A stretch of 64,000 bases of DNA from Candidatus Spyradenecus sp. (GCA_045605345.1 JAZUPT010000009.1:5553-69552), one strand, 5' to 3'; positions 4,845 to 55,093 are shown, numbered from the stretch's first letter. Notes: generated by a model not told the origin, from the sequence alone. Program-made: numbers and translations.

Positions 4845-5846
4845 ATGAATACGTTTCCTGACCTTCGACTGAGTCGTTTACGGCGAACCGCCGGCATCCG
4901 CGCAATGTTTGACCTTGAAATTCCCGCACCCGCAAAATGGTGTTGGCCCACCTTTGTAGTGCCCGGCAAGGGAATCAAGGAAGAAATTGCCTCCATGCCA
5001 GGGCAATATCGTTACTCGCCAGATACACTCGTCAGTGCAGTTGAAAAGGTCGTGCAACAAGGCGTGGGGTCGGTCCTCCTCTTTGGTCAAACCGATGGCG
5101 TAAAAGATAATGGCGGCTCACAGGCATGGCATGACCATGGCGCGGTGCAACAAGCCGTTCGCCTTCTCAAAAGTGCCTTCCCCCACCTAACCGTCATGAC
5201 CGACGTCTGCCTCTGTGCGTACACCGACCACGGACACTGTGCGCCGTTACGTCCAGATGGCTCGCTTGACAACGATGCAGCCTGCGAATGCCTCGCAAAG
5301 GTGGCCCTCTCCCACGCAGCGGCAGGCGCAGATGTGGTGGCCCCCTCTGCCATGATGGATGGACAAATCGCCGCCATCCGTGCCGCCTTAACGGAAAACG
5401 ATTTCAATCAAACACTCCTCATGGCCTACTCCACCAAGTTTGCCTCTGCTTGTTACGGGCCCTTCCGCGACGCAGAAGGCAGCGCACCGCAACTGCGCCC
5501 TGGCATGCCCGCTGACCGAAAAGGTTATCAAGCCTCCTATGCCAACCCCCGAAATGCCCTCATGGAGTCGGTCTTAGACGAAGCAGAAGGCGCTGACATC
5601 TTGATGGTTAAGCCCGCCCTCTTCTACCTTGATATGATTCGTGCGGTGCGCGAACAAACCCTTCTGCCGGTGGCCGCCTACAACGTTAGTGGCGAGTATT
5701 CGATGCTCATCGCAACTGCCCGCCAAGGATGGGGCGACTTAGATGAACTCGTGCGCGAAAGCACCATGGGCATTGTGCGGGCGGGTGCCGACCTCATCAT
5801 CTCCTATTGGGCCTCGGAATACGAACGTTTCTTCGGCAAACGCTAA
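4845..5846 (+). CDS. hemB: porphobilinogen synthase
   Basis: DVCLCAYTDHGHC zinc site, PSAMMDG, KFAS..YGPFRDA, LMVKP, AYNVSGEYSM. Confidence 0.97.
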   Translation: MNTFPDLRLSRLRRTAGIRAMFDLEIPAPAKWCWPTFVVPGKGIKEEIASMPGQYRYSPDTLVSAVEKVVQQGVGSVLLFGQTDGVKDNGGSQAWHDHGAVQQAVRLLKSAFPHLTVMTDVCLCAYTDHGHCAPLRPDGSLDNDAACECLAKVALSHAAAGADVVAPSAMMDGQIAAIRAALTENDFNQTLLMAYSTKFASACYGPFRDAEGSAPQLRPGMPADRKGYQASYANPRNALMESVLDEAEGADILMVKPALFYLDMIRAVREQTLLPVAAYNVSGEYSMLIATARQGWGDLDELVRESTMGIVRAGADLIISYWASEYERFFGKR

Positions 5847-6061
5847 TTCATTCTAAGGTGTACATTATTGCTACGACCGCGACGATTTTCTTAATGAATC
5901 CGCGGTCTTCTTTTTTACCTCTCCTAAAGATAAGATTACGGCACCGCGGCGAGGCTCAGAAGAAAGCGGAGCGCTTCAATGGCGAACGGGTAGAAAAGTT
6001 CACATTTCGTTTATTTTTTATCATTTTTCATCATTTTTCTTTCATTTTTTCAATAAATTCA

Positions 6062-6090
6062 TTGTAAAAGTGTCTATTTTTTACTACAAT
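6062..6090 (+). promoter_or_regulatory. sigma70-type promoter of the isomerase-dhaKL-lsrF operon
   Basis: TTGTAA-17bp-TACAAT in an AT-rich region. Confidence 0.7.
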
Positions 6091-6110
6091 TTAGAGTGTT
6101 GGTTTTCGTT

Positions 6111-6130
6111 CTGACGTTTTGCAATGTCAG
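6111..6130. promoter_or_regulatory. putative repressor operator (palindrome)
   Basis: CTGACGTT-TTGC-AATGTCAG, 8-bp arms with one mismatch, just downstream of the -10 box. Confidence 0.5.
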
Positions 6131-6159
6131 TCATTTTAATTGAAAGGACTAAGAAAACA

Positions 6160-6882
6160 ATGGATACGGTAAAAATGATGCGTTTCGGCGCTCTGGCAGC
6201 TCTCGCTGCGACGTTTATGGGATTTTCTGCAGGTTGCTGCGGTACGGCAACTTGCCCAACTGCTAATGCAAAGGAGATTGTTCAAGTGACTAATGATGCT
6301 TTTTACACCGATGGTAAGTTTGACGCTGAAAAGGGCAAGCAGGCTTATATCGATTTGATGAAGAAACTCGGCGCACCCGTTTATGCTCGTTACACCGATG
6401 AACCCGGCTTCCTCTGGGCTGTTGACTTCGCACAGGGCGACTTCGCAGCATTCGGTATGGGTGGCGTTTTCTGGGAAAACAACCGCGAGAAGGAATATTT
6501 CGCACACGAAATCTTCTTGCTCCCCGGCCAGTCGATTGCTGAACACTGCCACAAGCCTACGACCGATGACAAGGGTCCCCTGCAGTGCAAGCACGAAGCT
6601 TGGCAGGTGCGTTATGGTTCTGTCTATGGCTTCAGCGAAGTGGGCGAACCCAACCTCGATCAGTATCCTGAAGTGAAGGCAATGCTCGCCAAGTGCCAGG
6701 CTCCGCACATGAACAGCGTCCACGTGGAAAAGTGGGAAGCTGATGGCAAGGTACATCGTCTGCCGAAGGATGAAACTTGGCACTTCATGATGGGCGGTCC
6801 GGAAGGCGCAGTCGTCTCCGAATATGCTACCTATCACGATGGCAACGGCCTCCGTTTCAGCTGCCCGAACGTGGCATTCTAA
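6160..6882 (+). CDS. D-lyxose/D-mannose isomerase-like cupin with lipoprotein-type signal peptide
   Basis: WAVDFAQGDF, LLPGQSIAEHCH, KHEAW, H..GGPEGAVVSEYATYHD cupin motifs; hydrophobic N-terminus ending S-A-G-C; RBS AAGGA. Confidence 0.75.
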   Translation: MDTVKMMRFGALAALAATFMGFSAGCCGTATCPTANAKEIVQVTNDAFYTDGKFDAEKGKQAYIDLMKKLGAPVYARYTDEPGFLWAVDFAQGDFAAFGMGGVFWENNREKEYFAHEIFLLPGQSIAEHCHKPTTDDKGPLQCKHEAWQVRYGSVYGFSEVGEPNLDQYPEVKAMLAKCQAPHMNSVHVEKWEADGKVHRLPKDETWHFMMGGPEGAVVSEYATYHDGNGLRFSCPNVAF

Positions 6883-6890
6883 TTTCAACC

Positions 6891-46856: not shown

Positions 46857-47117
46857 TAAATTCCCATTGGCCACTCAATGCTTCCCCCTCGCGCCACACC
46901 TTACCGCGAACTACATAAAGCGCACGACAGCACCACGACACGATGATTGCCACCCCTGTGGATGCAGGCGCGTGTTTCTGCGAAGCCTATAAGCGCCTAT
47001 GCCGTTGGCTTGGCATTCCCGGTGCCTAAAGACTGTGACGCATGTGCAGGTTGCACGCCTCCATACGCACTGCGAAGTTCCTTCTTTTTCTTCTTAAGGG
47101 GCTGAATATCCCTTAAC

Positions 47118-47152
47118 AAAAAAATACAGCAGCCGCGGGAACGACTGCTGTA
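47118..47152 (-). terminator. terminator after the ankyrin gene
   Basis: TACAGCAG/CTGCTGTA stem with A7 on + (T tract on -). Confidence 0.75.
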
Positions 47153-47178
47153 GGTTAATCACTGAGCAATGGTTCGGC

Positions 47179-48132
47179 TTACTTGCGCTGCCTCAACCAT
47201 GCCTCTGCCTGCTTTGCTTGATACCGCTTCGCCACCTCAAGTGCTGTCTTCCACTTCGAAGTAGGCTCGTTTATTTTTGCGCCATGCTTAAGTAGTAGTT
47301 CCATCAATGCCACATCATTCATTGCCACCGCTGTATAAAAAGCCGTCAACCCATTCTGCGGCACTGCATTTACATCCACACCCTTTTTCAACAACGTCGT
47401 GATGAGTCCTGTGGCATTCTCCAACTCCATTGCAAGCATCAGCGTGGTAGCCCCCGACTTTGCCCACTTCACCTTCACATCCGCGCCCATTGAAACGAGC
47501 ACCATCGCCGTATTCCCATTCGCCCGCTCTAACGCAATCTGCAAAGCCGTCTCCCCAGTGGGGGTGCGTGCATTAACATCAGCCCCAGCCTTCACCAAAT
47601 GCTCCACACATCCACCTGCCCCATCCCAGGCGGCATGATGCAACGGCATCCAGCCTTGCTCATCCTTTGCAGAAGGATCGGCACCATAACGCAACAATGT
47701 CTTCGTGCTAAACACCTCACGCCCCTGAATAGCATAATGCAACGCCGTTAACTGTTGCTTACAACACACATTCGGATTTGCCCCCGCCTCTAACAATGCC
47801 ACAAGAATAATATCATGGCCGAATCTTGCCGCCATCGAAAGCATTGTAGCCCCTCGTTCATCCAAACGATTAAGACCACCCTTCGGCACAAGCAATTCAA
47901 TGCCCTGCTCCGTCTCCGCCAATCCTGCCACGCCATAACGTTGATACGCACGCGCCACACCGCGTTGTTTAGCATCAGACGTCACCACTGAACCATCCTC
48001 TAGAACAAAGGTGACATCCTCAGCCCAAATGAGCGGATTATCCGTGTACTTAATTGACACAGAGGGTGCCGCCTGCACCGCAAATCCCAATCCCAAGCCT
48101 ACAATCAAAGTAAACATCATCCGTTTCATCAT
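47179..48132 (-). CDS. exported ankyrin-repeat protein
   Basis: Signal peptide ending AVQA; repeated TALHYA/PLHHAA...LLxxGADVN units. Confidence 0.92.
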   Translation of the reverse strand: MMKRMMFTLIVGLGLGFAVQAAPSVSIKYTDNPLIWAEDVTFVLEDGSVVTSDAKQRGVARAYQRYGVAGLAETEQGIELLVPKGGLNRLDERGATMLSMAARFGHDIILVALLEAGANPNVCCKQQLTALHYAIQGREVFSTKTLLRYGADPSAKDEQGWMPLHHAAWDGAGGCVEHLVKAGADVNARTPTGETALQIALERANGNTAMVLVSMGADVKVKWAKSGATTLMLAMELENATGLITTLLKKGVDVNAVPQNGLTAFYTAVAMNDVALMELLLKHGAKINEPTSKWKTALEVAKRYQAKQAEAWLRQRK

Positions 48133-48281
48133 AAACCTCCGTTCAAAAACAATTAATCACGCTGCCCGCCCAAGGCTTTTAGGAAACAACGTACAGATAA
48201 ACCGTACATCCCAAGTAAAACGAGGACACCGCAGCCCCCGTAAGACCATTAAAGAAATTATACATCTCAATTTCTCCTTCC

Positions 48282-48488
48282 TTATGGTAAATTCACCCAT
48301 GGTTTATAGTGATTTTGTACGCAACGACACTTCAAAAACGCATGCGACGGCGCCGGATAGAATGGACACCGATGCGCACTTCCATCGCACCGCAATCGCC
48401 GCCCGTATTCTACCAAAACGCGCTCGCCACTCCAATGTTGACACGTGCCACAACACTGCGCCGGCAATGTGATATACCGATCCGACAT
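48282..48488 (-). CDS. small Cys-rich putative metal-binding protein (68 aa)
   Basis: CCGTCQHWSGER...C...C...CRC...YKPW; AAGGGA upstream. Confidence 0.55.
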   Translation of the reverse strand: MSDRYITLPAQCCGTCQHWSGERVLVEYGRRLRCDGSAHRCPFYPAPSHAFLKCRCVQNHYKPWVNLP

Positions 48489-48530
48489 AATCCAATGAGT
48501 TCCCTTTACCTAAAGAAATTCACCTCAGCG

Positions 48531-48689
48531 TTATTTCTCTTCAGCTTTTGCTCGCTCAGCCTTTGCGCGCCACGCTGCAGCCTCATCAGCCGACTGTGCT
48601 ACACCTAAGCCCTTCTCATAACACTTTGCAAGCACCGTCATAGCATCAGCACACCCTTGTTCGGCCGCCTTGCGATACCACTTTACCCC
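48531..48689 (-). pseudogene. 5'-truncated, frameshifted Sel1-repeat gene remnant
   Basis: Manual translation VKWYRKAAEQGCADAMTVLAKCYEKGLGV, frameshift at GTGTAG near 48602, then AQSADEAAAWRAKAERAKAEEK*. Confidence 0.75.
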
Positions 48690-48765
48690 CTAAAAGAATG
48701 AATGTAAGAATAAGTAAACTTACCAATAACCAAGTCATAGCGATTACCTTTCTACTTCCAAAGCG

Positions 48766-48795
48766 CTCAAACATCGCACCACATGCGAACAAATT
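48766..48795. repeat. 30-bp direct repeat, left copy
   Basis: CTCAAACATCGCACCACATGCGAACAAATT. Confidence 0.92.
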
Positions 48796-49375
48796 CAATA
48801 ACCTTATCAGTTAGCCAACCGACTTCTGACACATTAAATAATCGCGTTGGTCGATAATGCATTTCTTTAGCATCACCTTTCGTTGCCACATCAATAAGAT
48901 CTTTTCCATCATTTCCGTGCTCCTTACACCCAAATAGCATGTCTACAAAACAATTTTCATCAAACCATTTCTGGTTCATTGCCCAAAAATTTAACGGCAA
49001 CTCTTCTGTCAATTCTTTAAGCTTTCCATTTTTTATTTTCGTTTTAACCAATATAAAGAAAGAACAATGTGGCCTCAACAATAACGGAGCATTTTTATCT
49101 GCATTAACCGTTATTCCAGGAAACACAATATTCACCGCCAACCATTTATCCTCATCCGTTCCATTACAGTTAGCCTTATCACCATCCTTGTCTAAACATT
49201 TTTTAGAATTAGCTAAAAACATGTTTAATATACAATTCGGCTTCGCCAAAAGTGAAATCATTAAGTTTTTCGTATCCAGACTCCAATTTTTACCGCGCTT
49301 AGACGTCTTAATGAAATCTTTTACAATATTTGACCTAATCCGAGAGACACAACCTTGTGCACGTAAAATACTCAT
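48767..49375 (-). CDS. hypothetical protein (possibly the 3' remnant of a longer gene, or an immunity protein)
   Basis: 202-aa ORF with AAGGAG upstream; its last codons lie in the left direct repeat. Confidence 0.5.
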   Translation of the reverse strand: MSILRAQGCVSRIRSNIVKDFIKTSKRGKNWSLDTKNLMISLLAKPNCILNMFLANSKKCLDKDGDKANCNGTDEDKWLAVNIVFPGITVNADKNAPLLLRPHCSFFILVKTKIKNGKLKELTEELPLNFWAMNQKWFDENCFVDMLFGCKEHGNDGKDLIDVATKGDAKEMHYRPTRLFNVSEVGWLTDKVIEFVRMWCDV

Positions 49376-49476
49376 GGCATTACTCCTTCTTTCAACAAGT
49401 CTTCTAATTACTTAACACTTTTTCAATCTTTGAAAGAGAATTTACAGGTCGTTTACCACAATCAAATCATCATTAT

Positions 49477-50307
49477 TCAGTACAATGGAACTGCATGAGT
49501 TTTCATCATCAAATCTATCGCATTCGGTTGTAACATTAATTCGCAAAACTTTGTTATTCTTGCAAATTCTTGTTTCTTGTCAATGACATGATACACGAGC
49601 ATTACCGCTCCTGTTCCAGCAATCGCAACAAGCGCAACTCCACCTGTAAGAACCACCGCACCGAGAGCGGTTCCACCTCCGCCAGCAGCGATAGACCCAC
49701 CCCCAAGCCATGCCAATGTCGCATTAGTAGCAGCCGCACCATGCAATGAAGCAATAGCCGTCCCCGTACTTGCTGTTCCCCATGCCGAAATAGCAGCAGT
49801 CGTTCCCCAGCCCGCGGCAGCACCAAGGCCTGCACCTACACCTGACGCAATAGCCATTCTATTCGCGGTTTTCAAATCTACATACCCCATATACCAACTG
49901 CCATATGCAAGGATTGAACCTACAAATATCCCACTAGTTGCCGATGAGAAGACACTGCCAAGTGTAGTAGCAGAACACCCTAGAGTGTGCCCTAAACTCT
50001 TAAACAGCCCTTGCACCACTCTCCATTGAGTAAGTCCAACTTCAAGATATTGAGCACCGAGTGTTCCTAAAAAAACAGCACCACCTGTAAAACCTAGTTT
50101 TTCATAATCTATTTCACCAATTGTAAAGAATTGTATACCTGCATCAAGCGCTACAGCAACAACACTTGAAATTCCTGCTTGTTTAGCAAACGCCCCCAAC
50201 ATTTGTAGTTTGCCATATGGCGTAAGTATATCTTTGGTTGTAGAATTAATTTTTTTAGCAAGGTTGGCAAGTTCCCGTTCTGAATAACTAGGGAATTTAT
50301 CTTTCAA
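49477..50307 (-). CDS. glycine-zipper/hydrophobic helical domain protein, likely the C-terminal half of the upstream ORF
   Basis: GTASTGTAIASLHGAAATNATLAWLGGGSIAAGGGG motif; weak TTG start; frame open upstream as REIAKSL. Confidence 0.7.
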   Translation of the reverse strand: MKDKFPSYSERELANLAKKINSTTKDILTPYGKLQMLGAFAKQAGISSVVAVALDAGIQFFTIGEIDYEKLGFTGGAVFLGTLGAQYLEVGLTQWRVVQGLFKSLGHTLGCSATTLGSVFSSATSGIFVGSILAYGSWYMGYVDLKTANRMAIASGVGAGLGAAAGWGTTAAISAWGTASTGTAIASLHGAAATNATLAWLGGGSIAAGGGGTALGAVVLTGGVALVAIAGTGAVMLVYHVIDKKQEFARITKFCELMLQPNAIDLMMKTHAVPLY

Positions 50308-51179
50308 ACTCTTTGCAATTTCACGTCAACATCCTTTGAAAATTTTTCTTTTAAAACATCTTTCAAAACTATTCGCTGAGTTTCTGGCAACTTGCTAGCT
50401 TTTTGGGTAACATCTAGCGTTGACGCATCTTTGATGGCGATCGTCATATCATTACCTTCAGGAATAATTTGAAATAATCGTGAGCGAAATCTAATTATTC
50501 CTTCTCCAGCTGCAGACAAATATTTACCATACACCTTTGCAAGTTTTTGAGCTTCTTGCAACTCTTCTAGGCTCCCAGAAAACTTCCACAAATCTTTGGA
50601 GCTAGCTCTCCAAAAACAAACTTCTTTACCATTCTTAAGGACAACCATCATCTCATGTTTGCCGCCTAATGGTGGAGCTTTTTGAATAGTTGTCACTTTT
50701 GAAAGTTGATAATAGCGATCTCCCATTTTCTGCAATCTAGGTTTAATCCAGCCTCTTGTCAACTGCAATCCATCTTTTGTTTTTGAAAGCTGACTTGTAT
50801 TATACTTAGATTCTCCAACAATAATATCTTTTGGAAGTGCTGTTTTTGGGTCTATTTTTAGGAAAATATGATCAATGCCTTGTGACCCAACTCGCGGTGA
50901 GATGGAATGCCAGTTTCCTGTTTTTTGTAAGGACGTCTGCAAAAACTTACTCGCAGCAATACTTTCCCCAACGACACCTTTAATACTTGTCCTCCCCGCC
51001 ACATGTGTTCTGGCGAACGCGGATGGGGCATTGGATAGCATCGATGAATATGCGGTCACTCCAGAAACAACACCAGTTCTAATCGGATCAATAAAGTCTT
51101 CATCTCCTGCAACAACTATACGTATTGCAGACAAGAGAAATAAAACGATGCTAAATAGTTTAAGTTTAAATCCGCTCAT
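50304..51179 (-). CDS. signal peptide plus PD-(D/E)xK-type toxin-like nuclease domain (PoNe-like)
   Basis: KGVVGE...QGIDHIF...IIVGESKYNTSQLSKTKDGLQLTRGWIKPRL; hydrophobic N-terminus. Confidence 0.65.
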   Translation of the reverse strand: MSGFKLKLFSIVLFLLSAIRIVVAGDEDFIDPIRTGVVSGVTAYSSMLSNAPSAFARTHVAGRTSIKGVVGESIAASKFLQTSLQKTGNWHSISPRVGSQGIDHIFLKIDPKTALPKDIIVGESKYNTSQLSKTKDGLQLTRGWIKPRLQKMGDRYYQLSKVTTIQKAPPLGGKHEMMVVLKNGKEVCFWRASSKDLWKFSGSLEELQEAQKLAKVYGKYLSAAGEGIIRFRSRLFQIIPEGNDMTIAIKDASTLDVTQKASKLPETQRIVLKDVLKEKFSKDVDVKLQRV

Positions 51180-52909
51180 TAGAAATCCTCTAATTGTTTA
51201 ACATTTTTAAATGTCGCTTTTTGATACTGCATCTCTGCTTTGTTAGGTAACTGATCATAAATAATCTGATATATGTTATTGTAAAGAGAATTAACATCTG
51301 GGAGCAATAACGCAGGATTGATTTCAAATATATAATTCCTAAACATTTCTTGTGCGATTTTGTCCTTAATAATGAGAGTTGAATTCCATTGTTTTATTGC
51401 CTCGTTCAACTTCTTTATAGCCCACTCTTGATATGCTTTATAGCGTTCTTGCGAAAGACTTGTAACACGCAAAGACAGAGACTCTACTTCCGCTGCTAAA
51501 GTTTTTCTTAAATCTAAATCATAGACGGAAGACAATAACGGCTGAAATTCTTTTGAAATCTCTGTGATTCTAGTAATGCGCGATGTATATGTACAATCCT
51601 CAAATGAAATATTACGACACCGCGCAATCAAATCTTCTATTTGCTTTTGCGAGGAAGCAGATGCAATTAGATTTAATTTCTTATCAATCAAGGAGATATC
51701 CCCTTGAAGTTGTTCTGCCATGGATAGAAAATCCTGATACTTACTACAATCAGAACTCCAGATTTGCGACAACAAAGTATTCGCTGTTTGCAATTGATTT
51801 CTTGCCGTCAATATTTCTTCAGGCGTAAGTTGTTTTTTGCCCACCAACGCGTCAGATTTTGCGACAGAGTTCTTTACAGCAGAAATTACTGTTACCATTG
51901 AATAAAGTCCCGTTGCATAACTTAAGTCCTCTGCGAGTTTTTTTTGCTCTTCTTGGGAAAGTGAAGCATCTGCAAGTAAAGCTGTAAGCGCCTCAACTCG
52001 TTCTTTCAATAGAGATTCATTGACATCTCCGTTAGCATAAATATGGGAAATTGCAAGAGAACCATGTTCAAGTTCTGCAATGCTATCCGCAACTGCGGCT
52101 ACGATTTCTTTATTTCTTGCGTCAGACTCAACTGAAACGATGCGATCTCTTTGGTCAATAATACTTGTTTTCATAGAAATAACATCGAGAACATCCGATG
52201 ATGCAACTTGAAAAACCGCCAAATCTAAAATATTAACGAATTGATCAATATCAAATGTTGACAAATCTTGCTTTTGATACAATAGTTCGTTGTAAAACTT
52301 GATGTACACCATATTTGATGAGTCATGATTAATAGCATTTAGTGCGTAAACCATTGCCAATTGCAACTCTCCTTGTTCTACCGCTTTTTTTGCCATACTG
52401 ATAGCCATTTCGGCATTAATTTGATTTCTTTGAGATGATTGGACTACAGTACCAACATCCCCGTTCAAATTTGCCAATCCGAGAATCAACTGATTTTGGG
52501 CTGAAATAATTTGATTAAATCGCGCATCCAGTTTATCAAAAGCTTCCATTTGCTTGGCGTTTTCAACAATGCGCGCGTCCAAATGCTCTTTTTCTTTCGC
52601 AAGTTGTTGAGACAATGTTGTCATCGCAGCAACCGTTGTTTCACGAATAGCATTCAACTCTACCACAAAATTAGTTCGAGCCACTTCCACCTGCAGAAGC
52701 AAAGAGTCTCTAGCGGTTTGAACACTTCCGTCAAAAGCCTCCATTTGTTGCACACACATTGAAGCTTTCGTTTGAAAATTCTTGTACTCTGCATGTATGT
52801 CAGAAACATCACGTATAACCTTTTCGTTATAGTAAATCTGTATACCGATAAAGGCCGCCTGTATTGTAATCACAAAGAAAAACAATAGAGCAATTATTCT
52901 ACTTTTCAT
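51179..52909 (-). CDS. membrane-anchored coiled-coil/TPR-like helical protein
   Basis: N-terminal TM, long heptad-rich region, TPR-like AKKAVEQGELQLAMVYALNAI; GAGGTG RBS; TAATG coupling to the next gene. Confidence 0.75.
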   Translation of the reverse strand: MKSRIIALLFFFVITIQAAFIGIQIYYNEKVIRDVSDIHAEYKNFQTKASMCVQQMEAFDGSVQTARDSLLLQVEVARTNFVVELNAIRETTVAAMTTLSQQLAKEKEHLDARIVENAKQMEAFDKLDARFNQIISAQNQLILGLANLNGDVGTVVQSSQRNQINAEMAISMAKKAVEQGELQLAMVYALNAINHDSSNMVYIKFYNELLYQKQDLSTFDIDQFVNILDLAVFQVASSDVLDVISMKTSIIDQRDRIVSVESDARNKEIVAAVADSIAELEHGSLAISHIYANGDVNESLLKERVEALTALLADASLSQEEQKKLAEDLSYATGLYSMVTVISAVKNSVAKSDALVGKKQLTPEEILTARNQLQTANTLLSQIWSSDCSKYQDFLSMAEQLQGDISLIDKKLNLIASASSQKQIEDLIARCRNISFEDCTYTSRITRITEISKEFQPLLSSVYDLDLRKTLAAEVESLSLRVTSLSQERYKAYQEWAIKKLNEAIKQWNSTLIIKDKIAQEMFRNYIFEINPALLLPDVNSLYNNIYQIIYDQLPNKAEMQYQKATFKNVKQLEDF

Positions 52910-52936
52910 ACTTTCACCTCACATTTTTCATCGCGA

Positions 52937-52966
52937 CTCAAACATCGCACCACATGCGAACAAATT
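52937..52966. repeat. 30-bp direct repeat, right copy
   Basis: Identical to 48766-48795. Confidence 0.92.
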
Positions 52967-53326
52967 TGGTTACTTTGCTTGTTCTGGTTCTAACATATAG
53001 CACGCACGCAATCTACCACTAGCTCGTTCAAAGCCACTACTTACCAACTTTTGGTACCAAATGATAGCTTTTTCTATGCACTGCTCCATCCCTCGATGGA
53101 ATACTGTCCAGAACATCCATTAATCCTAATACACCCTATACCATTCTCAGCAATTCCCATATTCATCTTGTACATCCTCTTCCTTCTCAAAGGCACGAAA
53201 AAAGGCGTGCCTCTTGTTATTGAAACTCTCTGGAACGAAAAATACGCGTTAACGCATCTTTTAGTGCGTATGAGAGGTGGTGAGAGGGCGCATCACGTCT
53301 TCACCCCAATCAAACTATGTATCTAT

Positions 53327-53355
53327 AGCATACTCCCCTCTACATAAGATTGCAA
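53327..53355 (-). promoter_or_regulatory. sigma70-type promoter pointing into the AT-rich cassette
   Basis: Minus strand TTGCAA-17bp-TATGCT. Confidence 0.5.
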
Positions 53356-53574
53356 GCCTTTTTACTTATTTCGGCTGTCAGCGCAACCGAAGGCCAAACA
53401 AGACCGAGCATTTCTTCTATGACTAATGCCTTAGTGCTTCTGCCTCTCCCTTTTTAACTCAACGTGAGCGAGGGGATTTTCTTCTTTTCTTAAAGGGGGT
53501 TTGATATAATCACATCACTGAAAGGATGTGGTGCTAATTCTTTCTATTCATCATTTTTGCGAAGAGGGTGTTTT

Positions 53575-54282
53575 ATGGAATTTCAAGATAAGGTGGTCGT
53601 CATTACCGGTGGGGCTCAGGGAATTGGAAAGTGTTGCGCAGAGGTTTTCCAAAGTAAGGGGGCCCTTGTGCAGATTATTGATTGCCAATCTGGCCCATGG
53701 TTTGTGGGAAATCTTGCCGAAAAGTCGGTATTAGAAGCATTTGCCGCAGAGGTTATTGCGCGCTATGGCCGCGTTGATGTCTTGGTCAATAACGCAATGC
53801 CTCTTTTTAAAGGGATTGATGCGTGCACCTATGAGGAATTTGCTTATGCTCAAGCAGTGGGCGTAATGGCCCCCTTTTACTTGGCGAAATTATTCAAGGA
53901 TGCCTTCTCGCCTGGCGCCTCCATTATCAATATCTCCTCCTCTCGCGATCGCATGAGCCAACCCCAATCCGAGAGTTACACCGCCGCCAAGGGTGGTATC
54001 GCCGCCTTAACGCATGCCTTGGCGGCGAGCTTGGCTGGACGCGTCCGCGTAAACTCGATTTCTCCTGGCTGGATTGATACCACAAACACCCCCTACACAG
54101 GTCCCGATGCTACCCAACACTTCGCAGGGCGCGTGGGGCATCCTCTCGACATTGCCAATATGGTCTGCTATCTCGCTTCTGAGAAGGCGAGCTTTATCAC
54201 TGGTGAAAATATCTGCATTGATGGCGGCATGACGCGCCAAATGATTTACCACAATGACTGCGGATGGACCTTTCAGGGGTAA
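53575..54282 (+). CDS. SDR family oxidoreductase
   Basis: TGGAQGIG, VNNA, YTAAK, NSISPGWI, ITGENICIDGG. Confidence 0.95.
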   Translation: MEFQDKVVVITGGAQGIGKCCAEVFQSKGALVQIIDCQSGPWFVGNLAEKSVLEAFAAEVIARYGRVDVLVNNAMPLFKGIDACTYEEFAYAQAVGVMAPFYLAKLFKDAFSPGASIINISSSRDRMSQPQSESYTAAKGGIAALTHALAASLAGRVRVNSISPGWIDTTNTPYTGPDATQHFAGRVGHPLDIANMVCYLASEKASFITGENICIDGGMTRQMIYHNDCGWTFQG

Positions 54283-54316
54283 TCAAACCGCACGCCCCTG
54301 CCCGCTTTTGGCAGAC

Positions 54317-55093
54317 TTAAGAAAGCTTCGTGGCCACCTCTGCAAGAATCTCTAAAAGGGTCGTTTTTCCTTCAAATTGTGCCTTCGTGAAGGAGTATTC
54401 GGTCATTTGAGGAAGTTGTTCCGTGAGCCAGGCAATATCTTTTGAGGTAACAGGGCGCGCCGTTTCAATCGATTGCCCCAAACGGAAGACACTTTTCTGT
54501 GCATAAGAATAGACCCAAATGGGGTTTTCCTCTTCCACCCCAAGATTTTCTTCCATGACCTCAAGATTTTCGGGACATTCACAACTATCAAGAATGTAGT
54601 CTTTATCTTCAGGAACGGCAAGGAGAAAATCAAATAATGCAGGTGTCTCAAAGTCAACTGTGTTTAAGATAAAATTAAATGTGGTAGCCGATATGGCCGA
54701 ATCTAAACGACACGACCATTCACGATGCTCCTCTTCCGAGAAGATTTCCTCTCCCCATTGACGCAACGCTTCACGAAGCTCCTCCCACGGCACACGTTTT
54801 CCTGTCGGACGAAGGGTGTACTCTCCGAGCAATCGCGCATTCGCTTTTAATTGCGGGAAGCATTTGCCCAAAGCCATCCGTATCATTGAGATGAGGCCAT
54901 AAGTTTGCCAAGTGAAATCGACTAATTCATAGATTTCGCCAAACGTTTCAATAAAACGCAATTGCTCTATGCGCGCTTTCATCCCTGGCAATTCACGCCC
55001 TAAAAAGCACCGTGTGATGACCTCTCCTTGTCTTACGCGAAGCGCAAAACTAAGAAATCTTTCGTTGCCACCACTAACATAAAAGCGTTTCAT
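54317..55093 (-). CDS. hypothetical protein
   Basis: 258-aa ORF with GGAG upstream; no recognised motif. Confidence 0.65.
   Translation of the reverse strand: MKRFYVSGGNERFLSFALRVRQGEVITRCFLGRELPGMKARIEQLRFIETFGEIYELVDFTWQTYGLISMIRMALGKCFPQLKANARLLGEYTLRPTGKRVPWEELREALRQWGEEIFSEEEHREWSCRLDSAISATTFNFILNTVDFETPALFDFLLAVPEDKDYILDSCECPENLEVMEENLGVEEENPIWVYSYAQKSVFRLGQSIETARPVTSKDIAWLTEQLPQMTEYSFTKAQFEGKTTLLEILAEVATKLS

Follow-up and report, generated by a model that had tools for sequence, protein, structure and literature searches.

We describe here two adjacent genes, A and B, on the minus strand of a 64,000-nucleotide (nt) stretch of DNA from Candidatus Spyradenecus sp. (GCA_045605345.1, JAZUPT010000009.1:5553-69552; this whole stretch is the window in what follows, and positions are counted from its first letter). 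Together they are a conserved, previously undescribed two-gene module with a sizeable unnamed family behind it, and the linkage of A to B is our strongest result. We think that the pair is a horizontally mobile module of the cell envelope that most likely serves in defence or conflict, by a mechanism that we infer, and we would put the probability of this reading at roughly 45%. In five of the six other genomes with a full-length B, phmmer finds a homologue of A directly upstream on the same strand, while in the sixth (locus L024) an open reading frame (ORF) that abuts B upstream ends in SLERF, a linkage by motif only. Scans of metagenomes, seeded both with a single B protein and with a 10-sequence alignment, returned 12 contigs carrying the N-terminal domain of B; two of these loci begin at a contig edge, and each of the 10 whose contig extends upstream of B has a homologue of A immediately before it, in the same orientation. 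The neighbourhood check that a preliminary description of the window had proposed for the pair thus returned A upstream of B in 6/6 genomes (one by motif) and 10/10 contigs. At all linked loci the stop of A and the start of B overlap or sit within ~100 nt of one another, and in the window they share a single base (TAATG).

The preliminary description had reported translationally coupled, AT-rich genes at this site, and four minus-strand ORFs are present (Table 1) in an island of 37-43% guanine plus cytosine (GC) spanning ~48500-53500, against ~50-55% on either side. The anatomy of three or four genes that it proposed has to be revised, since there are two genes, A and B, and its second and third ORFs are one gene. 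A HMMER search with the 291-residue ORF gave 307 cluster representatives (clustered at 50% identity) at E <= 0.001, and among the best 150 of these 307 the proteins are mostly ~500-600 residues long, with the match always within the first ~300. The normal length of B is ~565 residues, present here as ORFs of 291 and 276. Two relatives, P0127 (565 residues, 72% identical) and P0003 (504 residues), run uninterrupted into sequence like that of the 276-residue ORF, as does the intact 565-residue homologue at locus L003, which crosses the break site without a stop. When window 49477-51179 is aligned to the L003 gene (75% DNA identity), the single frame-breaking gap is one base missing at 50326/50327, and the only other gap is an in-frame 6 nt within the signal peptide. 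The 291-residue ORF ends at a premature TGA five codons past the break, the frame of the 276-residue ORF is open upstream to ~50328 and, ahead of its first TTG, reads REIAKSLKDKFPSYS, as in intact relatives, and a search of the organism's own genome with B returns two pieces, the second containing one TGA. We also compared contigs of four public sequencing runs over the region. In two of them, X1 and X2, which come from two studies and are labelled gut and bovine gut metagenome, the sole covering contig has a T inserted behind 50325, so that the closest relatives in public data are intact. The break reflects either a mutation particular to this strain or an error of one base in the assembly; unless it is the latter, B is split in this genome and the module here is probably inactive, and functional tests therefore belong on an intact natural homologue.

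The module is patchily distributed. Of 401 genomes in the phylum, 15 have a match to B, which is full length in six, split in the present one and confined to the C-terminal domain in most of the others, and most genomes of the same genus have no full-length B. The family is commonest in Verrucomicrobiota according to the Protein Atlas label, the phylum being known for 12 members only. None of the four ORF products has a meaningful match in Pfam, NCBIfam or PHROGs, an Rfam scan of 47000-54500 gave no match, B matched only its own unnamed cluster in the Protein Atlas, and literature searches found no paper on the A+B pair.

Domains of A and B

The N-terminal half of B carries the motifs K67x3G71E72, G101-I-D103, E123-S-K125 and Q139..W144..R148-L149, which is the nuclease pattern that had been read from the window at the outset. 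In an alignment of 80 homologues G68, E72, G101, D103, E123, K125 and Q139 are invariant, so these motifs are not a matter of chance. An AlphaFold2 model built from the same 80 sequences (predicted local distance difference test, pLDDT, 88.9; predicted template modelling score, pTM, 0.79) has an alpha-beta-beta-beta-alpha-beta core and places E72, D103, E123 and K125 on helix 64-82 and on strands 104-109 and 116-126. Foldseek found no match for this domain in the PDB at E <= 0.001, and a single-sequence search of solved structures with the 291-residue ORF gave nothing meaningful. A structure search independent of Foldseek returned mostly restriction-endonuclease folds among its 50 best rows, including Hjc (1gef, Z 7.3, root-mean-square deviation (rmsd) 3.6 over 105 aligned residues) and I-Ssp6803I (Z 7.2), with the tRNA-splicing endonuclease, D212, NhoI and HsdR as further matches, and realignment of the Foldseek candidates put the SPARDA nuclease domain on top (Z 8.0, rmsd 3.7, 111 aligned); Z values below 8 lie in the range that shows a common fold only. 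Because the fold lists are consistent and the invariant E..D..ExK residues sit on the right elements of the model, we regard the predicted PD-(D/E)xK assignment as sound, and the nuclease call of the preliminary description stands as far as the modelled fold is concerned. That the E/D/ExK/Q residues are the same in all of these homologues argues for catalysis.

In sequence, B recalls most of all the PoNe nucleases. PoNe domains are proven antibacterial DNases, defined by the motif Kx3GE..GIDx2Y..Yx3ExK; the activity of the founding member, V12_14465 of Vibrio parahaemolyticus, depends on Mg and is abolished by D335A (Jana 2019, PMC6688995). Two profiles of the B family, searched against 177,635 solved-structure sequences, both had as their best match PDB chain 9waq_B, which is labelled VP14465 and which we take to be V12_14465. 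The E-values are borderline, at 0.093 for the full-length profile and 0.044 for the profile of the N-terminal domain, and the alignments cover the KGxxGE, GID and ExKY block as well as the QMS..W...RL block. The same chain is not among the rows of our structure-search lists, which is evidence neither way. Since the similarity is borderline, the domain N-terminal and a PoNi gene absent from the places searched, we call the domain PoNe-like on its sequence, and its membership in the PoNe family proper is not established. As to PoNi, no DUF1911 or DUF1910 match was found in the 202-residue ORF or in the downstream genes scanned at other loci, in line with what had been said of this locus at the start; PF08929 (PoNi_C) was not found in this assembly either, though control genomes also gave no signal.

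B begins with a signal-peptide-like segment, having a positive start, a hydrophobic core and a small-residue site between VVA and G, and an N-terminal hydrophobic stretch is found by a simple Kyte-Doolittle hydropathy rule in 57 of 58 full-length homologues, which is consistent with the signal peptide first proposed for the second ORF. Behind the nuclease domain, the 276-residue ORF holds a linker, helices rich in Gly, Ala, Ser and Thr, a strong last helix and a short tail that opens with a Lys/Arg-bearing segment. In the intact protein of L003 the moderately hydrophobic Gly/Ala/Ser/Thr-rich helices, several in number, span residues ~325-500 and the strongly hydrophobic one ~503-530 (mean hydropathy 2.19), and IDKKQEFAR and ~30 further residues follow. 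By the positive-inside rule the tail is predicted to be cytoplasmic and the N-terminal domain to lie outside the cytoplasm; given the last helix and its Lys/Arg residues, B should stay in the inner membrane of the cell that makes it. The layout first suggested, an N-terminal nuclease ahead of a C-terminal membrane domain, is correct when both ORFs are taken as parts of a single protein.

The hydrophobic Gly/Ala string noted in the third ORF is a glycine-zipper core of considerable reach. PADLOC matches residues 144-250 of the 276-residue ORF to PDC-M09A (PDLC04406, E 6.3e-20; PDLC04407, E 3.1e-17), the family core has the consensus GTASTGTAI.xLSGAAA.NA.LAWLGGG..AAGGGG, at least 3272 proteins are homologous to it at E <= 0.001, and 18 of its positions are invariant in 38 proteins of differing domain architecture. 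A profile of the core gave weak coiled-coil matches among solved structures (viral fusion proteins, syntaxin), which we judged spurious. A shorter variant of B, 450-461 residues long, also exists (L031:598-1953 and L036:1578-2963; also P0010, P0012, P0016 and P0019); it has a signal peptide, a different N-terminal domain with a D..ExK-like GFDQVY..VVVEAKGG and the same core, its named members come from Beggiatoa-like bacteria, and at L031 and L036 (451-461 residues) an A-like gene whose product ends in LSDF comes before it.

A has an N-terminal membrane anchor at about residues 5-27, a long helix to ~119 and a helical domain at ~160-576 that ends in LEDF, and its AlphaFold2 model (pLDDT 84) is all helices. 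A word-indexed search found 28 homologues, none with a Pfam domain, and their alignment shows an N-terminal hydrophobic helix, a variable coiled-coil stretch and a conserved ~400-residue domain with the blocks LAxIYxLNAINH, ARNQLQTAN..SQIW and RYKAYQxWA and the C-terminus LE[DR]F. We predict that this helical bulk lies on the periplasmic side. Fold searches with A gave only generic matches, TPR-like at residues 157-270, solenoid, and three-helix-bundle at 330-420 (Foldseek template modelling score ~0.14; the best Z, 12.3, does not reach the noise mark for helical models), so no specific fold can be named. Of the original picture of a membrane-anchored coiled-coil and TPR-like protein, the hydrophobic helix and the all-helical build are thus kept, and the TPR likeness is generic. 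A complex prediction of A (150-576) with the N-terminal domain of B (25-291), run without controls, scored 0.00 against a mark of 0.32, which we count as neutral. In G116, a genome of the same genus (L024), the A-like gene is apparently split in two (L024:4731-5273 and 5517-6887), a 180-residue ORF with a membrane helix and a 456-residue ORF that corresponds to the remainder and ends in SLERF.

The island and its surroundings

Table 1. Positions of the A+B module and of the elements around it in the window.
Feature	Position	Strand	Remarks
Repeat, upstream copy	52937..52966		30 nt, 28 nt before the start of A
Gene A	51179-52909	minus	576-residue ORF
Gene B, 5' part	50304-51179	minus	291-residue ORF: putative signal peptide and predicted nuclease-fold domain
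Signal-peptide-like N-terminus of B	51108..51179	minus	MSGFKLKLFSIVLFLLSAIRIVVA followed by GD, as read from the sequence
Predicted PD-(D/E)xK fold domain	50355..51002	minus	B residues ~60-275; K67, G71, E72, D103, E123, K125, Q139
Frame break	50325..50327	minus	one base fewer than in L003 and the X1/X2 contigs
Gene B, 3' part	49477-50307	minus	276-residue ORF from the first TTG
Glycine-zipper core	49558..49878	minus	GTASTGTAIASLxGAAATNATLAWLGGGSxAAGGGG with flanking helices; PDC-M09A-like
202-residue ORF	48767-49375	minus	no Pfam, NCBIfam, PHROGs or PADLOC family match
Repeat, downstream copy	48766..48795		3' end of the 202-residue ORF

The 202-residue ORF downstream of B had been put forward as the candidate immunity gene, and this does not hold. 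It has no counterpart at the six genome loci (phmmer) or among the ORFs that 79 metagenome loci contain, being found at none of the 16 other A+B loci. Among 32 other genomes of the family, two, G158 and G047, have relatives of it, both without a match to B. Being unlinked to B, with relatives in genomes where no B was matched, it is a local gene and not an immunity partner. In G158 the relative stands at the syntenic site beside the same ankyrin gene, where Sel1-repeat genes take the place of A+B.

A perfect 30-nt direct repeat, present in only two copies in the 2.19-Mb assembly (93.9% complete), brackets a segment of 4171 nt that holds the 202-residue ORF, B and A. The upstream copy reads, in frame, ..KFVRMWCDV followed by a stop, like the last codons of a gene of the 202-residue type with no gene body before it. 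As the repeat is the 3' end of the 202-residue ORF, this suggests that recombination at a gene of the 202-residue type brought in the bracketed segment, and the site has the look of a recombination scar. An apparent empty-site joint in run X4 (48215>53178) has 25 letters on one side and 90% likeness, and was not used.

Several features of the site lie beyond the module itself. Gene remnants occupy window 48560-48800 (minus strand) downstream of the 202-residue ORF, including a 50-residue ORF in which the stretch MTWLLVSLLILTFILLG matches the start of a 213-residue membrane coiled-coil protein of G158, and, after it and in a different frame, a Sel1-repeat C-terminal fragment. At 48654-48686 several contigs from other runs diverge, and one 4.7-kb contig of run X1, which agrees with the window on either side, has 423 other letters in place of 474 at 48862-49337, in the middle of the 202-residue ORF, so that this gene is variable between close strains. 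At 47179-48132 (minus strand) lies a 317-residue ankyrin-repeat protein with a signal peptide, its gene sharing 81% DNA identity with that of G158, and it matches the PADLOC model PDC-M72A through its repeats only. At another locus, L030, an ankyrin and LysM protein stands just upstream of the A+B pair.

Function of the module

We read A+B as a conflict or defence system because four things come together: a patchy distribution in islands, defence-type neighbours, a core that is kin to a defence candidate, and a nuclease of toxin ancestry. The AT-rich island, the 15 matches in 401 genomes and the syntenic site of G158 with other genes in place all speak for an accessory and mobile character. 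As for neighbours, PADLOC places PDC-S24 and AbiLi/AbiLii directly downstream at L023, PDC-S15 at L024, SoFic at L025, an IetA-like ATPase at L056, a PD-T4-6-like kinase at L038, and an HmaB-like methylase and a PLD/SNF2 helicase directly upstream at L037, where Pfam adds a transposase downstream. Other glycine-zipper proteins adjoin SngC/BrxH, Hhe and NERD-UvrD genes. The defence neighbourhood is a lead, not a statistic.

On this defence reading, A would be anchored in the inner membrane and face the periplasm, with its TPR-like part and three-helix bundles acting as a sensor, regulator or scaffold. B would be exported by its Sec-type signal peptide, so that the PoNe-like nuclease folds outside the cytoplasm, and would be tethered to the inner membrane by the glycine-zipper domain and one firm transmembrane helix, its short tail remaining in the cytoplasm. 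The nuclease would be harmless to its producer as long as it stays outside the cytoplasm, and if its location keeps it off the cell's own DNA, that would account for the lack of an immunity gene. In response to a trigger perceived at the envelope, A+B might cut DNA in transit across it, or the glycine-zipper helices might insert into the membrane and open it, or both. A more ambitious version would make A+B a new class of immunity at the outer face of the inner membrane, in which a PoNe-like DNase restrained by location is triggered through A and brought to foreign DNA, or driven across the membrane by the glycine-zipper to destroy the DNA of the infected cell, a domesticated toxin nuclease for which location replaces the immunity protein; we hold that version to be improbable as it stands.

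Several points weigh against a defence or conflict role. An extracytoplasmic nuclease has no obvious phage substrate, since injected phage DNA is usually shielded. The neighbour survey took in ~45 proteins in 14 loci as an informal count without a background rate, two of the matches, those to a kinase and an AAA ATPase, are to broad families, and about half of the loci have no defence gene in the available flanking DNA. PDC-M09 is a candidate system only, and B matches its membrane core alone; for A, and likewise for the nuclease domain of B, PADLOC has no matching model, nor have Pfam, NCBIfam and PHROGs. The positive-inside rule and hydropathy are all that the topology of B is derived from, the sequence similarity to PoNe is borderline (E 0.04-0.09), the fold matches are moderate (Z no higher than 8.0), and a tblastn search with P0127 against plasmid and phage collections gave no match.

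Could B instead be a toxin? The preliminary description favoured an exported, delivered toxin of the AB type, and B might be a Sec-exported antibacterial toxin of PoNe type whose glycine-zipper crosses the target membrane, with A as an immunity protein, a chaperone or a display stalk. The motif order of B and its best solved-structure sequence match, a PoNe chain, fit this idea, as does the tight coupling of A to B, immunity genes often being so arranged; some PoNe domains, moreover, come after a Sec signal peptide (PMC6688995). Yet the strongly hydrophobic last helix and the Lys/Arg residues behind it predict retention in the producer's membrane, and Pfam showed no receptor-binding, PAAR, LXG or contact-dependent inhibition (CDI) part in the 58 full-length members, where it found no recurring family at all (15 families, each in one member). 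A gene upstream of B whose product is predicted to be periplasmic would also be in the wrong compartment to neutralise a DNase. A DUF1911 gene follows 89.8% of PoNe genes (PMC6688995), against none in the downstream genes scanned here, and PF08929 adds only a silence shared with the control genomes. Names from the taxa that carry B (Verrucomicrobia, Lentisphaerae, Kiritimatiellae, Beggiatoa) are absent from four supplementary spreadsheets of that paper. We therefore consider a delivered toxin unlikely, and the membrane-associated anti-phage alternative, which the preliminary description also raised, fits the evidence better.

Other bacteria have extracytoplasmic nucleases that are anchored in the membrane and act on DNA as it enters, and B could in principle be one of these: a tethered periplasmic DNase that processes or degrades DNA brought into the periplasm, as a nutrient or to limit transformation, with A as its partner. 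An exported nuclease fold with seemingly intact catalytic residues, in a family commonest in Verrucomicrobiota, would suit such a housekeeping role. A patchy distribution, with a full-length gene in only six of 400 other genomes of the phylum and none in most genomes of the genus, weakens this idea, as do the AT-rich island, the variable site and the break in the gene here; such a role would also leave unexplained the extreme conservation of a glycine-zipper that is common to defence-neighbourhood proteins. We rate it as rather improbable.

Least probable of all, in our view, is that the nuclease-fold domain serves in sensing or binding rather than as an enzyme and that the output is a pore or membrane remodelling by the glycine-zipper: the core is conserved more than any other part and is found behind quite varied N-terminal parts, the shorter variant keeps it together with an A-like partner, and full-length PDC-M09A members (P0042 and the L093 protein) weakly match the dynamin-like LeoBC model (E 1.5e-5 and 7.5e-6), but the fully conserved E/D/ExK/Q set argues for catalysis, and pore or remodelling activity is known for no member.

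The pair is of interest for the scale and the oddity of its family. The N-terminal domain of B matches 307 clusters, no Pfam, NCBIfam or PHROGs model fits either protein, and the pair joins a toxin-type nuclease to a membrane domain common to defence-neighbourhood proteins, in a predicted extracytoplasmic setting and with no immunity gene. If A+B is a defence system, it would be a nuclease-based one acting at the envelope, and would furnish the first functional handle on the widespread glycine-zipper core; if it is not, the pair still defines a new PoNe-like architecture.

Comparison with known systems

The nearest named relative of the membrane part is PDC-M09, which has received a passing mention in one paper. 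The match of B spans positions 131-242 of the 330-position PDC-M09A model, that is, the membrane core only. The PDC-M09A proteins proper (for example P0042, P0058 and that of L080, where a canonical PDC-M09A and PDC-M09B pair is found) are ~300-330 residues long, match the model over its full length and have coiled coils flanking the core, and, unlike B, they have neither a signal peptide nor a nuclease domain. The PDC-M09B hidden Markov model gave no match for gene A in the window, at L003 or at L036, and hhalign between the A family and a PDC-M09B-like alignment returned a probability of 0.18-0.2%. A kinship of PDC-M09B with A or with the nuclease domain of B, considered from the KGFSAE..DHIEI..SQxKF pattern by eye, was rejected at hhalign probabilities of 0.35% (B) and 0.18% (A). 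The PDC-M09B-like proteins (for example L080:6852-8300) do carry an N-terminal KGFSAE..D.IEI..SQxKF that looks nuclease-fold-like by eye and whose G, E, Q and K are the same in all 10 sequences compared; hhalign shows no link of it to B. At eight further loci (L040, L051, L058, L079, L081, L084, L085 and L091) a PDC-M09A-like protein of ~303-335 residues is followed on the same strand by a 125-140-residue ORF without a family match, directly after leucyl-tRNA synthetase at L040 and L051, and these pairs may represent a distinct two-gene arrangement within the glycine-zipper family. What PDC-M09 and A+B share beyond the core is their build, as both are two-gene units with a partner of ~480-580 residues.

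Turning to the nuclease, Hjc, I-Ssp6803I and the SPARDA DREN domain align with the modelled B domain over a core of ~105-111 residues (rmsd 3.3-3.7, Z 7.2-8.0) and have an acidic and Lys residue pattern of the same kind. Their identity to B is 13-17%, and they are cytoplasmic, neither exported nor membrane-tethered. PoNe has in common with B the predicted PD-(D/E)xK fold and the motif order Kx3GE, GID, ExK(Y) and Q(M)S..W...RL. B has no delivery part of a type V, VI or VII secretion system (T5SS, T6SS or T7SS) and no PoNi gene among the neighbours scanned, and within the motif, where K67x3G71E72, G101-I-D103 and E123xK125 are all present, both Tyr positions are replaced, by Phe (F106) in GIDx2Y and by Ile (I119) in Yx3ExK. 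B further differs from PoNe in having an extra beta-rich part and helix (residues ~160-275), in carrying its nuclease domain at the N-terminus where PoNe has it at the C-terminus, and in the fusion of that domain to a membrane domain.

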